Positions 11,739-61,575 of a stretch of DNA of 64,000 bases are shown here, piece by piece. The stretch is from Octopus vulgaris (Eukaryota), in NCBI GenBank assembly GCA_951406725.2, contig OX597830.1, positions 22,816,001 through 22,880,000 of the forward strand, given 5' to 3'. A program made the position numbers and the translations under genes. Every line of letters starts with the position of its first letter. Positions within the stretch are counted from its first letter, which is position 1. Under the pieces are notes generated by a model. That model did no database searches. It was not told where the DNA came from and was given only the letters and a program-made list of their open reading frames with translations.

Positions 11739-12520
11739 TAAACATGTGATATTAATATTATATCATTCCGTCACTAAAAAAAATGTAATTATAGGTTTTT
11801 TTATTATCTTTACTAGTATAATTGTATTGTTGTTTATCTAAATTATGTAATTTCACAATAATCTGTATGTGTAAATCTTAGTTTAATAGCATCTCTTAAT
11901 GACTGGTAAAGCAGCTGTGACGAGTCCCAGCGACAGCCAAAATTAAGTCTATAAGCAGAGAAATCTAAATATGCAGGGAAACAGGTTTGGCATCGCACCA
12001 TGACAAGAAACTGACCACGCGCTAATGATTTCCTTTGAAGTAGAACGCTAGCAGATGCAGGAAATTAGTAATTATATATTTATGACATTATAATCCGAAG
12101 TTGTTCATCTATCTTCATAAAAGACGAAACAAATCTGTGCTTAAGAATGGAGTGAAAAGGGGTTTGTTTATTTTATATTTTCGTTTTATTTATTTTTTTT
12201 CATTAATTGTTCTTTTTTGGGGGGATATTTTTTCTCATTTGCAATTCTTTGTTTTTTCGTGTTGCGCTTTGTCAACGGAATGCTAAAAATAGAATAAGGA
12301 CATAAAACGAAGGGAAACAAAAGTTGATCCAGCAGTCCTCTCGAATCTACTCACATGAAGACGTGCAAGCATATAGCTATTGTTGGATCGTATTAATGCA
12401 ATAATATGCATAATATATGCAGCATTCATACGTAGAAACAATTGTAGAAATTTGGAATAAAATGTGTTCCTTCCATTTTCCTGTATTAGAATTCTCGACT
12501 TATAAATTAGATAATTAGGA

Positions 12521-13722
<1,202 letters not shown>

Positions 13723-13829: not shown

Positions 13830-15085
13830 TCACATTCTAAACCTGAGAAAAGTCTTGCATAGTTTTACTGTTCCACTTACAAATTGTATTTGTAATGTGC
13901 GAATCAGTTGGTTGACTTCTTTTTCTGAAAATTCAAGCTTATCCAGACTGACAGTTAGGCATTTACTTACAATACCAAACGCTCCTACTATTATTGCTAC
14001 AAATGTAAATTTGTAGCCCGGATATAGAAGCTGGAGGTTTTGAAGCAGTTGTCCATAGTTATCTTCTTTCTCTTTGATTTTCAACGAGATATTCACATCA
14101 GCAGGACAGCTGTCCTCCATCACGGCACATACTTTTCTCATGTCCGTCCCAAACAACAATATCCAGCCTGTTATGCTTACACTTGACAGATGTTTTGATG
14201 GGAATATTCCATCTGCATTCCTTGTGTTGATATTTGTGTACGGATTCAATAACAGGGATATTCTCTATATTTATTCTAGGACAGTCTTTTATTCCGAAGT
14301 GCATTGTATATTGTTTTTGTGACAACGTCATGTCGCATAGGGAGGCGGCGAGATGGCAGAATCGTTAGTACGCCGGGCGAAATGCTGAGCGGTATTTCGT
14401 CTGCCGTTACGTTCTGAGTTCAAATTCCGCCGAGGTCGACTTTGCCTTTCATCCTTTGGGGGTCGATTAAATAAGTACCAGTTACGCACTGGGGTCGATA
14501 TAATCGACTTAATCCGTTTGTCTGTCCTTGTTTGTCCTCTCTGTGTTTAGCCCCCTGTGGGTAGTAAAGAAATAGGTATTTCGTCTGCCGTTACGTTCTG
14601 AGTTCAAATTCCGCCGAGGTCGACTTTGCCTTTCATCCTTTGGGGGTCAATAAATTAAGTATCAGTTACGTACTGGGGTCGATGTATTCGACTTAACCCC
14701 TTTTGTCTGTCCTTGTTTGTCCCCTCTACGTTTAGCCCCTTGTGGGCAATAAAGAAATAAGGGAGGTGGTACCTTGATGACATTTTTGGGCAGCTGCTAA
14801 TCACATGTGTGATGTCTTGCACATAAATATGACATAAACTACATTTACAGTTGCATCTTGGAACTTCAAGGGCTTCACTGTCTCTTTCGTTGATAAGGTA
14901 TTTAGTAGCAATATCCTGTTCTTGAATTGCAAATGCATAGCTTTCGAAGCGTGATGTAGCGGTCACGAATCCAAGAGAGACTTCGCTTCATGCCAGTGTT
15001 ACTATCGTCTTCTAGACCATGCATACCACGTATGGTCTTTTTTGATATGCTAATCGTTTCTCTTCCAGGTCTTCATTGAGATAGG
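13830..15085 (-). mobile_element. 3' fragment of an RLE-type non-LTR retrotransposon (R4/Dong/NeSL-like), interrupted by a SINE
   Basis: FAIQEQ..T..., CCHC knuckle (CSLC...HVISSC), RHD, HNRLDIVVWD...EDSCPADVN...KEKEDNY..L...IIVGAFG. Confidence 0.85.
14344..14759 (+). mobile_element. SINE-B dimer inserted into the RLE LINE
   Basis: GGCGGCGAG.TGGCAGAATCG head with two body units, flanked by an AGGGAG(G) duplication. Confidence 0.9.
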
Positions 15086-20377: not shown

Positions 20378-20450
20378 GTCTCTGTGGTACAATCGGTTAG
20401 CACGTTCGGCTGTTAACCTAAAATTGGTGGTTCAAGCCTGACCAGGGATG
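20378..20450 (+). pseudogene. tRNA-Asn(GTT) pseudogene
   Basis: GTCTCTGTGGTACAATCGGTTAGCACGTTCGGCTGTTAACCTAAAATTGGTGGTTCAAGCCTGACCAGGGATG is colinear with the conserved metazoan tRNA-Asn. It shows CpG-type decay and broken T-stem and anticodon-stem pairs. Confidence 0.85.
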
Positions 20451-21590: not shown

Positions 21591-21665
21591 GAGGGAGACA
21601 GACGAAAACAGCAATAGCTTACCTGTCAGCGATATATATTCATGAAATACTAGCGAGATCCGTGA

Positions 21666-22153
21666 AATGCAACTCTCAAATCGAGGCTTTTAAAAATAGA
21701 ATTCAGCTGCAAATCGCATGATTTCATAATTAGTGCAGAAATGCACTTTTCAATCTTCAGTGCAAGCATAATTCAAGATTTATAACGAATGAACAAAAGG
21801 TTTTTCACGTTAACTACTTGATAAATTGTTATAAAGATTTTATCCTATTTCAAAATTGTAAATTTAACCGGAGTATATTCAGTGCTGAATTTTAATTCCG
21901 AATAAACACGTTGTACCGAGATGCAAATAGAAAAAGCCCGCCTTTTTCATAGATGTATAATGGTTGAAACAATTCTATATACTACGCTGGGTACATTGGA
22001 TGTTCGATTGGTATGTTGATTTTTGTTCATTCGTTATAAATCTTGAATTATGCCTGCACCGAAAATTAAAAAGTGCGTTTCTGCACTAATTATGAAATCA
22101 TGTGATTTGCAGCTGAATTCTGTTTTTAAAATGCTCGCTTTGAGAGTTGCATT
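21666..22153. repeat. ~133-bp inverted repeat (21666-21798 / 22021-22153); also a ~60-bp direct repeat (21798-21860 / 22296-22358)
   Basis: The arms are reverse complements with few mismatches. Confidence 0.9.
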
Positions 22154-22374
22154 CCATCGCATTCGGTACCATGTGTTTATTTATTTTGGTAGTTTTGATT
22201 TTAAGAGTCCCTCCTAGCGTGTGGCATTTATATATAGTAATGCCATGTATGAATAAATATATTTAAGAGAAAAATTGATGGATTTTTCTCTTATGAGGTT
22301 TTTCATGCTAACTACTTGATAAATTCTTATAAATATTTTATCCTATTTTTAAATTGTATATATATATACATATA

Positions 22375-28500: not shown

Positions 28501-28549
28501 CTCAGTTGGTGATGAATATACGATAGCTCATTAGCTCCTACACGCATTT

Positions 28550-28719
28550 TTTTCTCTCCTTGTTTCTCTCCTTGTTTTTTTTCTGTGTATCTTTCTGTCG
28601 AAGAGCGTAGGCTCGAAACATAAAAGACTTTTTCTATTTCTATTCCCGAGCGCTTTACTAATACATTTGTTTGTACTCCACCTGCCTTCGTCTTTTGTTT
28701 ATTTTCGTAAATCTTTCCG

Positions 28720-28786
<67 letters not shown>

Positions 28787-28965
28787 GGGAGAGTATATAC
28801 ATATATATACATATAGGGAGAGTTTACGAAAAAAATAAAAGACGAAAACAGGTGGTGTACACGACAAACAGATGTATTAGTATAACGCTCAGGAATAGAA
28901 AAAGTCTTTTACTTTTCGAGCCTACGCTCTTCTACGGAAAGGGACACAGAAAAATCAAGGAGAGA
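28550..28965. mobile_element. Two Penelope-type terminal remnants facing each other across (TA)n, each with a minimal HHR-like motif (28590-28627 +, 28905-28943 -)
   Basis: TCTTT-CTGTCGA-AGAGC-GTAG-GCTC-GAAAC-ATA-AAAGA and its diverged reverse-complement copy. Confidence 0.65.
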
Positions 28966-29049
28966 AAAAAAGGAGAGAAAAAAGGAGAGAGAAAAAAGGA
29001 GAAAGACAAGGAGAGAAAAAAAGGAGAGAAAATGTATAAATTTAAATAT

Positions 29050-35757: not shown

Positions 35758-35824
<67 letters not shown>

Positions 35825-35950
35825 GGTCCCGGGTTGATTCGGGGTTAACCACAGTAAATAAGGTACTCAATACATAGCAGAGTAAAATTAATTTATTATA
35901 TAGAAGGAGCTTCTACAGGACTAGAACTGTTTCATTCAAGAGAAATCATC

Positions 35951-36007
35951 AGGAGCTTCCTGATGATTTCTCTTGCATGAAACAGTTCTAGTCCTGTAGA
36001 AGCTCCT
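35951..36007 (+). ncRNA. Type I hammerhead ribozyme candidate within a ~125-bp palindrome
   Basis: AGGAGCTTC-CTGATGA-TTTCTCTTGCAT-GAAACAG-TTCTAGTC-CT-GTA-GAAGCTCCT gives a 9-bp stem I, an intact CUGAUGA/GAAA core, a 4-bp stem III and a GUA cleavage triplet. Stem II is weak. Confidence 0.7.
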
Positions 36008-36009
36008 TC

Positions 36010-36093
<84 letters not shown>

Positions 36094-39618: not shown

Positions 39619-40485
39619 TCTGGTGAGAGATAAATATTATAACTGAGGAAGATTTTTCGTAAGAGATGAAATGTCCATTTTTATCTATTGCGCAATTATC
39701 TTAACCGCACGTATTAAATGCATTCAAAATGTCTTTACTGGTTTAACTTCAATTTTATACGATATATGACTCAATAACCCCTGCAAGCTAACAGTCCCAA
39801 ATCCATTCACAGGGTTACGATAATAAAAATTTGGAGTCGTTTGTTCTATTCGATTAGTGTTGGAAATTCTGGCGACAGGTATCGCTTCTATACCCGTTCA
39901 CAGGCCTCTGTTGATACTTAGTGTTAATACTTGATAAGTATTCAAATTAATAACTCCAATTCTTTGTAGCAACTGGAATTGTTGAGTATATAAACAGATT
40001 GGTTGCTTGTCTCTATGGAATTGGTCAAATGATGTGGACACCTCTGACGAGAATCCGATGGGGTTCGGAAATCGATTAAAGGGTTTTTCATCGTTTATTC
40101 GCCTAAAGTATATCATATACTGTATTTATTTATGTGTGTGTGTGTGTGTGTGTGTGGCTGTGTGGTAAGTAGCTTGCTTACCAACCACTGCGTGGCACCT
40201 TGGGCAAGTGTCTTCAACTATAGCCTCGGGCCGACCAAAGTGAATTTGGTAGACGGAAACTGAAAGAAGCCCGTCGTATATATGTGTATATATATATATA
40301 TATATATTATATACATATATATATATATATATATATACGGTTTAAGTAATTGAGATTCAAGTGAATTTTAATGAATTCACATGAATATGGTCCTTAACTA
40401 GGATGCACCGGAAATCTATATGGTGTTAACCATACAACAAGTGGGGTGATTCAAATAGGAAAAAAGCAACAAGAATGGATTAAAA

Positions 40486-40573
40486 TCTCGGTACAATTGT
40501 TTCGTACGAGGACATCTTTAATAAGCTACAAAAAATGCAGTAAATACAGATGGCTCGTACTCGTCAGCCGAAA
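40486..40573 (-). ncRNA. Type I hammerhead ribozyme candidate (left-arm copy)
   Basis: Reverse complement of 40882-40969. Confidence 0.8.
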
Positions 40574-40881
40574 AAACATCAGAGAATTCCCAAACATCAA
40601 AAGGGGTAGATACAAAAGAGGGTGTAAGATTAACTGCATTGAAGAAAGTTCGATTCCTGGAGATCCGATGAAAGGTCTTAAACTTACAAAAGAGGGTGTA
40701 AGATTAACTGCATTGAAGAAAGTTCGATTCCTGGAGATCCGATGAAAGGTCCTAAACTTACAAATTCTGTAAGTTTAAGACCTTTCATCGGATCTCCAGG
40801 AATCGAACTTTCTTCAATGCAGTTAATCTTACACCCTCTTTGTATCTACCTCTTTTGATGTTTGGGAATTCTCTGATGTTT

Positions 40882-40969
40882 TTTCGGCTGACGAGTACGA
40901 GCCATCTGTATTTACTGCATTTTTTGTAGCTTATTAAAGATGTCCTCGTACGAAACAATTGTACCGAGA
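40882..40969 (+). ncRNA. Type I hammerhead ribozyme candidate (Penelope-type, palindromic stem III)
   Basis: TTTCGG-CTGACGA-GTACGAG[...]CTCGTAC-GAAAC-AATT-GTA-CCGAGA. All core nucleotides are intact, stem II has 7 bp with G10.1-C11.1, ACAATTGT is palindromic, and the cleavage site is GUA. Confidence 0.8.
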
Positions 40970-40995
40970 TTTTAAGCCATTCTTGTTGCTTTTTT

Positions 40996-41037
<42 letters not shown>

Positions 41038-42169
41038 TGTGTGTCTGTGTTTGTCCTCCCAACATCACTTGACAACCGATGCTGGTGTGTTTACGTCGCC
41101 GTAACCTAGCGGTTCGGCAAAAGAGACCAATAAAATAAGTACTAAGCTTACAAAGAATAAGTCCTGGGGTCGATTTGCTCGACTAAAGGTGGTGCTCCAG
41201 TATGGCCACAGTCAAATGACTGAAACAACTAAAAGAGTAAGAGTAAAGAGTATACTTTATGTATTATGCTTGCTTACTTTCACTTACACACAATCAGTTA
41301 TACAGACATACACAGAGACGCACACACACATGCAAAACACGTATACACACACACACACATATATACACAAACGCGCTCGCGCACTTAAGCCTGCAAATGC
41401 TGCCACCATAGTTCTAGCAGAGAGAACAGGTCTCAGATGTCAAGTAATTTTAACCAAAAATAGCCGTAAAATAAAATTAAAAAAACACTTACCCCACCCC
41501 ACCTCAAGTACTTTCCAAGTAGAGCTTCTCATTTCATCACAATGCTTTCGAAAAAAAGGACATTCTTCTTCCTCTTCTTCTTCTTCTTTTTCTTCTTCTT
41601 CTCCTCCTCCTTTTTCAGTTTCTCCGCCTCATTTCCCTGTCTCCACTTCCTCTCTCTCTCCTGCTCCTCCTCTTCATCTTGTCTTCCTCCACTTCCCCTC
41701 TCCTACCTCCACTCATCTTCCCTTTTTCATCCCTCTCCTGTCCTCCCCGTACCCCTCATCTCCCTCCAACAACAATCGCTTTACCTCTTCTTCCTCTCGT
41801 CCATTGCCCCATTCTCCTCCTCCTCCTCCTCTTCTTCTTCTTCTTTTTCTTCTTCATTCACTAAGTTTTATGCTATTTTAAGTTATTTTATTTCCCTAGT
41901 ACCTCGAAAAAAAAAAGAAAAGAAAACTTTTGGGGTTCCTTTTCGATTGCAATAACGGATGCTATTTATTTATTTATTTATTTATTTACTTATTTATTTA
42001 TGTGTCTATTCAAGCTGAACCACTAAATTTCGGCTTGGAAGCTTTCTTGTGGGCGTCTTAATTTTTTTTCTCTCTTTCTTTGGTGCTCCAACATGGCCGC
42101 AGTCAAACGAGAGAAACAAGTAAAAGAATAAAAGAAGCGAAAGAACATCGAGGGCAGAGATCACAGTCA

Positions 42170-61399: not shown

Positions 61400-61575
61400 T
61401 GTGCGAAAAATAAAAAAAAGACAGAGACAGGTGAGTAACAACAAACAAGATGTATTAGTTTCACGCTCAGGGAAAATGGAAGAATCTTTTTGACGTTTCG
61501 AACCTATATCATCAACAGAAAGGAATGAAGAAAGAAAACAGATGAGGAGAAGAGAAAAAACGGAGAAAGAAAATA
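61400..61575 (-). mobile_element. Penelope-type terminal remnant related to 28550-28965, with an HHR-like motif at 61486-61523
   Basis: Reverse complement reads CTTT-CTGTTGA-TGATATAGGTTC-GAAAC-GTC-AAAA. Flanked by (TA)n. Confidence 0.55.

Follow-up and report, generated by a model that had tools for sequence, protein, structure and literature searches.

Endonuclease-bearing (EN+) Penelope-like elements (PLEs) leave insertions made of inverted 5'-truncated copies, with a one-sided tail of 30-40 bp and a bias toward (TA)n targets, as set out in the portions of PMC8557442 and PMC8969392 drawn on here. Head-to-head palindromic junctions of PLEs have been read as products of self-priming (Arkhipova et al. 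2013, PMC3846280, in the part used). For the element PAc, both target strands were reported to be cut and extended, with the tail corresponding to the sequence between two reverse transcriptase (RT) start sites, and its hammerhead ribozyme required protein for cutting and was dispensable for insertion in vitro (Frangieh et al. 2024, PMC11167929, same limitation). Penelope-13_HM has an inverted 5'-truncated copy and the same hammerhead on both strands (PMC8557442, portion of the supplement), and paired minimal hammerheads on opposite strands, 100-700 bp apart, have been tied to truncated PLEs (Cervera and De la Pena 2014, PMC4209133, in part). By definition, retrozymes are repeats of 150-450 bp in head-to-tail arrangement, every unit of which carries a hammerhead (passages of PMC7229834 and 10.64898/2026.07.22.740005), and the RNA expressed from non-LTR retrozymes is small and circular (Cervera and De la Pena 2020, PMC7229834). 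According to the part of the supplement of Bonar et al. used here, PLEs make up 6.83% of the Octopus vulgaris genome in 190 families; the same authors report 31 recently active PLE families, and the words ribozyme and hammerhead are absent from their main text. The octopus elements in the relevant sections of Craig et al. (PMC8557442), Naiad and Hydra-1_Obim, are different ones. In the octopus and cephalopod literature on PLE hammerheads, the family reported below was not found described; it may be present in Repbase, Dfam or the Bonar library. The literature on 'extended stem II' retrotransposons likewise gave no description of this family, and its long loop may be on record in Lunse et al.

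The window, by which we mean the whole 64,000-nt stretch of DNA analysed, consists of repeat-rich animal DNA and contains one SINE family in many copies. It looks like an octopus SINE, and the octopus literature serves here as context only. One copy is split by an insert of 660 bp (40338-40997, first and last non-TA bases) lying between two (TA)n runs. The SINE head (40154..40276, plus strand), which has two small deletions relative to other copies, aligned with four of four other window copies tested. The 3' part (41036..41243, plus strand) also aligned with four of four other window copies, faces the same way as the head and is collinear with it across the insert. The insertion target, recognised from the sequence, is the central (TA)n/(TG)n microsatellite, whose left part lies at 40277..40337 and whose right (TA)n part lies at 40998..41035; in the window alignments this microsatellite is uninterrupted in other SINE copies. 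Any target-site duplication would be hidden inside the microsatellite. The collinear SINE parts and the (TA)n on both sides bear out the location within the (TA)n of a SINE that the sequence-only reading had proposed. A tRNA-like Rfam match of 36 bits at 20378-20450 (plus strand) is probably a tRNA-derived SINE head or a pseudogene. Two further stop-free frames lie elsewhere in the window. The one at 12515-12964 (plus strand) has helix-turn-helix matches in Pfam and is presumably a Tc1/mariner transposase remnant; the one at 13830-14264 (minus strand) has no Pfam match, and we assume from its resemblance that it is the C-terminal end of a non-LTR retrotransposon ORF.

The insert begins with a 117-bp left extension (40338..40454, minus strand), followed by the left arm (40455..40762, minus strand), a 5-nt loop (40763-40767) and the right arm (40768..41000, plus strand; last non-TA base 40997). 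The palindrome spans 546 bp, with 231 of the 233 aligned positions complementary and one 1-nt indel. The near-perfect hairpin of about 545 bp described at first was therefore real, but an extra 74-bp tandem unit in the left arm had been missed. This internal tandem duplication (40611..40758) is present in the left arm only. Its two units, 40611-40684 and 40685-40758, are 99% alike with 1 difference, neither contains a hammerhead, and the extra unit gives the hairpin a 74-nt bulge. Because two letters of the loop belong to the 6-nt microhomology at the borders of the duplication, slippage following tip formation is its probable origin. The tip itself (40760..40770) consists of a 3-bp ACA/TGT stem and the 5-nt loop, and the arms end within 8 nt of each other. 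The 99% likeness of the arms agrees with the recent age first proposed. At the octopus rate of 0.0036 per site per My (PMC13282606), the 2 substitutions correspond to about 1.2 My (0.14-4.3), a soft estimate that depends on host identity, sequencing error and gene conversion.

Each arm contains an identical 88-nt type I hammerhead motif, at 40882-40969 on the plus strand and at 40573-40486 on the minus strand. The motif is composed of a 6-bp stem I, the CUGACGA core, a 7-bp helix II closed by G10.1-C11.1, a 43-nt loop II, GAAAC, the palindromic 8-mer ACAAUUGU and a GUA site. In the right copy (40882..40969), the core occupies 40888-94, helix II 40895-901/40945-51, loop II 40902-44 and the stem III palindrome 40955-62, with the predicted cut after 40963. 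The corresponding parts of the left copy (40486..40573) are 40567-40561, 40560-54/40510-04, 40553-11 and 40500-40493, with the predicted cut after 40492. The 43-nt loop II is predicted to fold into two further helices. A descriptor scan of the 64 kb gave 2 matches only, both in the arms, and 100 dinucleotide shuffles yielded 0.01 (relaxed) and 0.00 (strict) matches per window. The two intact cores, one per strand, were thus confirmed as identical folds expected at most 0.01 times per window by chance. Comparison with the Rfam hammerhead models, the check suggested along with that claim, lent it no support: no hammerhead family reached the gathering threshold in the window, and none was among the 47 matches listed at E<=10 for 40200-41200. 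The microRNA matches of Rfam in this interval were below the gathering score and were set aside as reflecting the hairpin. An exact 22-nt motif had 0 loci in JGI metagenome contigs.

Parts of the insert were found in 20 of the 24 listed runs (12 studies, six organism labels), and no run among those containing them is on record as RNA; X11 might be an RNA run, and it was given no weight as evidence of expression. The run with the best match to the insert may be the source sample. Contigs of four runs (X1, X4, X11 and X7) were aligned on 40340-40690, which comprises the tail and the left arm up to the first repeat unit. On these 351 bp, 654, 475, 46 and 6 contigs aligned per run, with identities from below 90 to 99+%; in X1, the classes 99+, 95-99, 90-95 and <90% held 158, 220, 216 and 60 contigs. 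The counts of listed contigs given below are based on 19 of 79 rows for loose ends and 30 of 1193 for pieces. Contigs of this kind cannot show absence, copy number or transcription, rare forms are dropped from them, and summed depth is not copy number. Judged from these sequences, the family is highly repeated and fairly young.

The contigs also defined the ends of the family. The extension lies on the left side only and is single-copy within the window, so its one-sidedness stood as first described (about 120 bp, here 117 bp), but its supposed uniqueness did not, since it is repeated family sequence in public contigs. It represents family sequence 3' of the hammerhead-bearing end and was covered in four of four runs. 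In X4 and X7, listed contigs bridged the tail-to-arm junction and reached at least 31 letters into either side. At least 7 contigs of X4 left the alignment at 40455 into (TA)n, and the right arm ends at this same family position; at least 5 contigs of X1 ended near the tail tip (near 40340) with (TA)n. Among the listed contigs, the family therefore has two 3' end positions, 40455 and near 40340, each adjoining (TA)n. A divergent tail variant was seen at 40434 in X4. Also in X4, loose ends at 40646 showed a divergent subfamily with shared sequence upstream of this position and different sequence downstream. The family has at least two 3'-end types.

At the opposite end, shared upstream sequence continued past 40688 in at least 3, 5, 4 and 3 contigs of X1, X4, X11 and X7, respectively. 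Loose ends at 40688, present in four of four runs, started with the minus-strand tip letters (the loop and the next three bases) in X11 and X7, and differed from the tip by one letter in X1 and X4. The tip loop and ACA are thus parent sequence, and the right copy is collinear with the family from 40760. The running on of copies beyond the tip in all four runs indicated that the arms are 5'-truncated ends of a longer element: the left arm is an inverted copy of the element's 3' end, reading outward, and the right arm is a copy of this end without the tail. At each of the family's listed variant sites within the arm, the two arms have the identical letter, implying that they derive from one template. 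Among the joints listed in the four runs, there was none for this hairpin tip, none for the 74-bp duplication and no tandem 'go back' joint.

Variation among the family contigs was also informative about the ribozyme. Positions 40495 and 40498 changed together in other copies, with the stem III palindrome kept. The linked change was found in the same single contig in X7 and X11, at equal depth in 11 contigs of X4, and in 21 and 22 contigs of X1. This compensatory pair is one inherited event. Covariation across copies, the evidence that the sequence-only reading had looked to, was accordingly found in part, as a palindrome-keeping double change of a single origin. A change at 40487 turned a stem I G-U pair into A-U, and loop II had four variant sites and one small insertion. 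The core and helix II had no variant among 29 positions, against 23 variant sites in the 351 bp, a difference that was not significant (P=0.13).

Folding of the monomer placed the predicted active fold 2.3 kcal/mol above the lowest one, in which the core was partly mispaired. For two copies, the unconstrained lowest-energy fold was a double hammerhead with both cores open (-55.2 versus 2 x -24.3 kcal/mol), and this dimer was predicted to be favoured by 6.6 kcal/mol. In a control, copies with a random 4-nt loop III gave the double hammerhead in 7 of 60 draws. From the fold of two copies and the linked double change, the hammerhead looks genuine, and it is predicted to be built to cut as a dimer through the palindromic stem III, in line with the dimer-type design suggested at the outset.

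The situation in RNA from this locus would be different. Each strand has only one sense hammerhead, so no dimer can form in cis. Whichever strand is read through, the antisense arm is transcribed ahead of the sense arm, and helix II had a predicted probability of 0.00 in such RNA. The modelling thus spoke against the competition between hammerhead and hairpin that had been envisaged. When transcription was started past the antisense hammerhead, helix II was predicted with a probability of 0.98-0.99, while stem I remained at 0.00-0.14. Stem I was likewise rarely formed at equilibrium (P 0.00-0.14) in predictions for single-arm transcripts with natural flanks. The ribozymes at this locus are probably inactive, because read-through RNA would bury their cores in the long dsRNA hairpin. 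Such hairpins are potential sources of dsRNA in host transcripts.

No recognisable coding sequence was found in the insert, as had been expected of it. The three frames tested with Pfam gave no match at the curated cut-off, and a word search of one sense frame against longer proteins returned 3 candidates, none of which scored. For the other sense frame, phmmer gave 1 match (E 8e-5) to an unnamed, repeat-encoded 306-aa singleton of three repeats. This protein has no RT or endonuclease domain, its tblastn comparison with the window gave E>=0.12, and we rejected the match as chance. The open antisense frame at 40398-40742 gave nothing in a Pfam scan, and frames across the tip joined to the loose-end consensus, read by eye, contained no PLE protein motif. 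No RT or GIY-YIG ORF was tied to the family, of which the insert contains the 3' end only. PLE 3' untranslated regions can reach several hundred bases, to judge from the Naiad consensus ends in the part of PMC8557442 used, so a missing ORF in 240 nt says little. Comparison of 3 + 6 short insert motifs with the supplement of PMC8557442 (Naiad, Chlamys and Hydra consensus) gave 0 or single unrelated matches, in a text whose line breaks can hide a match. A bacterial promoter scan, which is unsuited to this host, found nothing above chance.

Taken together, these results make it highly likely that a single retrotransposition event of an abundant and rather young PLE family targeting (TA)n gave rise to the insert, and that the insert consists of two head-to-head 5'-truncated 3' ends. 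Its layout, the two family ends, the (TA)n target and the hammerhead suggest that it is very probably derived from a PLE 3' end, an assignment that stops short of a named family. The Penelope-like origin and TA targeting put forward from sequence alone were borne out in this way, by truncated head-to-head copies, two 3' ends and (TA)n flanks as in published PLEs. The accompanying idea of a self-contained derivative or retrozyme-like unit was not: copies extend past the tip in all four runs, the hammerheads are inverted, and the tandem unit has none.

The insertion might have proceeded as follows. A GIY-YIG endonuclease would have nicked the TA run of the SINE, and target-primed reverse transcription would have ended after about 240 nt of the 3' end of the element, a stretch that includes the hammerhead; the truncation itself is observed. 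A 3-bp mini-hairpin native to the parent, at which the microhomology is observed, may have halted the copy. Head-to-head joining to an inverted second copy could have occurred by fold-back self-priming or by annealing of two cDNAs. In the fold-back variant, priming would take place at the mini-hairpin and the tail would later be trimmed from one arm. In the other variant, a single 5'-broken RNA would be the template for two cDNAs, primed by opposite target strands and begun at different start sites, and a 3-nt overlap would join them. The close approach of the arm ends, within 8 nt, fits fold-back priming and also fits the joining of two cDNAs. The two copies end at the two family 3' positions, which leaves the tail on one arm only, and the 74-bp slippage duplication in the left arm may have been generated during or after joining. 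On this reading, the hammerhead belongs to the terminal repeat of the parent element.

The family might instead be non-autonomous, a short non-coding element formed from a PLE terminal repeat and mobilised in trans by a PLE protein; tandem or circular, retrozyme-like forms of it might then exist at other places in the genome. Even so, this locus would still be a truncated, inverted insertion. The lack of a coding signal in the approximately 240 nt upstream of the 3' end and the very many short divergent contigs are in keeping with such an element, and animal retrozymes are indeed derived from PLE terminal repeats, according to the part of 10.64898/2026.07.22.740005 drawn on here. However, given the length of PLE 3' untranslated regions, the first of these points says little. 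The listed loose ends at the tail tip and at the arm end enter (TA)n rather than the next monomer, no 'go back' joint was among those listed, and the hammerheads are inverted rather than tandem, with none in the tandem unit. We therefore consider a non-autonomous family improbable.

We also considered whether the palindrome arose artificially from one truncated copy, through folding back in the assembly or in a long read. The 99% likeness of the arms would be expected of such an artefact, and the hairpin tip was confirmed by no listed contig joint. However, a fold-back read would mirror the flank, whereas the two SINE parts that flank the insert are collinear. Moreover, the arms differ by the tail, the 74-bp duplication, 2 substitutions and one indel, the tip lies at microhomology encoded by the parent, and both outer ends match family ends. 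A second family in the window has the same layout. On this evidence an artefact is very unlikely. An even fainter chance attaches to a MITE or fold-back DNA transposon inserted at TA with an incidental hammerhead match, which the long inverted arms and TA flanks might suggest, since the arms are not terminal (the 117-bp tail lies on one side), the upstream continuation of linear, longer copies in four of four runs contradicts it, the hammerhead descriptor has a chance rate of at most 0.01 per window, and the motif shows structure-keeping variants.

The second family with this layout is represented 4.5 kb away by an unrelated palindromic insert in (TA)n (35822-36015), which has no BLAST match to the 40338-40997 insert. 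The arms of this insert measure about 58 bp and its loop, on a short native stem, 3 nt; a tail of about 75 bp is present on one side. A type I hammerhead with its core at 35960 lies in the right arm; stem I has 8 bp, stem III has 4 bp, helix II is weak, and the truncation of the arm falls exactly at the 5' strand of stem I. A third hammerhead-like family adjoining (TA)n is found at 28548-28722 (plus strand), 28823-28983 (minus strand) and 61407-61573 (minus strand), with copies 72-82% alike, two of them in opposite orientation around one TA run. Its motif is minimal, with a 4-bp helix II capped by a tetraloop, an extra A after the core and a degenerate core. The presence of these second and third hammerhead families implied that the layout is common in this genome. 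In addition, the segment 21588-22160 contains an inverted pair (21663-21798 and 22021-22156, 92%) directly after a (TA)n run. A loose hammerhead-like core at 21760-21712 (minus strand) passed the very relaxed scan only, for which the chance rate is 0.06 per window.

The insert illustrates a known insertion pattern cleanly and at a young age. Its tip, both of its 3' ends and its tail are resolved to single bases, and these details bear on how head-to-head copies of PLEs come about. Its long-loop hammerhead is of a kind that Rfam and short-loop descriptors miss among PLE ribozyme candidates. A more far-reaching reading, which we offer only tentatively and consider rather doubtful as a whole, is that the family carries an active hammerhead subtype with a 43-nt structured insert in loop II, that cutting depends on the dimer, and that the tail marks the RT start sites. 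If this were true, the protein of the element itself could use the loop II insert as a handle, in line with the protein-assisted cleavage of PAc. The ribozymes would possibly be present in very many genome copies and be undercounted in PLEs, being missed by Rfam and short-loop descriptors, and the two RT start sites, 117 bp of tail apart, would be about three times further apart than reported.

A separate observation concerns Naiad 3' ends outside the window. Of the 8 ends in File S5 of PMC8557442 that we examined by eye, 5 contained the complete set of hammerhead elements, arranged as core, then cut site, then GAAA. These were Naiad-1, -2 and -3_Nbra, Naiad_Parc and the record before Naiad_Parc, while three octopus ends were without it. 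The arrangement is CUGANGA and a helix II strand, then a stem III strand, a GUC site and a stem I strand, and finally a helix II strand, GAAAC and a stem III strand. The helices of this CSG order, which is not a circular permutation, measured 4-6 bp for stem I, 4-5 bp for helix II and 6-12 bp for stem III, and by eye they stayed paired despite sequence change between families. Craig et al. marked some Naiad ends as HHR_core or half_core and stated that Naiads are without canonical hammerheads (PMC8557442, in the sections used). The CSG permutation was described from two sequences, none from genomes of known organisms, and neither Naiads nor nematodes are named in the corresponding passages of the main text (Eckert et al. 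2023, PMC10085705). Among the matches listed, no literature joined CSG hammerheads with Naiads. These nematode Naiad motifs are possibly more interesting than the 40338-40997 insert itself. A rearranged hammerhead of CSG order with its site in loop II of the present motif was rejected, as none of the 16 candidate sites paired on both sides; the best candidate had 2 in stem I with 3 in stem III.

Compared with retrozymes, the insert resembles the non-LTR class in being non-coding, low in GC and PLE-related, with a type I hammerhead (PMC7229834; Li et al. 2026, as far as the portions used extend). In contrast, its copies are inverted and 5'-truncated, and its only tandem unit (74 bp) is without a hammerhead. 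Naiad PLEs are characterised in the sections of PMC8557442 used by an N-terminal endonuclease and no canonical type I hammerhead; in the insert the order is canonical, the rearranged order of some Naiad ends is absent, and there was no short-motif match to the published octopus Naiads. With the minimal metazoan PLE hammerheads (PMC4209133, in the part used), the motif shares the type I fold, G10.1-C11.1, a palindrome formed by 15.2-16.2 and loop III, a predicted dimer and the pairing of motifs on opposite strands at 100-700 bp, and its 7-bp helix II is within their range of 7-8 bp. However, their extra nucleotide between A9 and G10.1 is absent, with helix II following directly after the core, and relative to the same class (PMC4209133; review PMC6765202, likewise in part) the 6-bp stem I, the long structured insert in loop II and the negative Rfam result are distinctive.

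The closest agreement was with EN+ PLE insertions. These, too, consist of 5'-truncated copies placed head to head, with a short overlap at the palindromic junction; they carry a tail on one side only and a sense hammerhead near the 3' end, and they lie in AT-rich or (TA)n DNA in which no duplication is readable. The internal 74-bp duplication is a difference from these, as is the tail of 117 bp, against 30-40 bp in the parts of PMC8557442, PMC3846280 and PMC11167929 used. Unlike in PAc, no ORF start was seen at or after the hammerhead. Within the PLEs, the Hydra clade (Penelope-13_HM, Hydra-1_Obim) shares with the insert the (TA)n target, the sense type I hammerhead near the 3' end, a stem III that is self-complementary (4+4) and, directly downstream, a T-rich stretch (PMC8557442, sections used). 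Loop II is longer here, at 43 nt, than in the Hydra rows of File S2 (3-10 nt) and in two plant PLE-X rows of that file (about 29-35 nt; PMC8557442, rows used). In style, then, the hammerhead appears nearest to the Hydra clade, although Neptune and Naiad elements target (TA)n as well.
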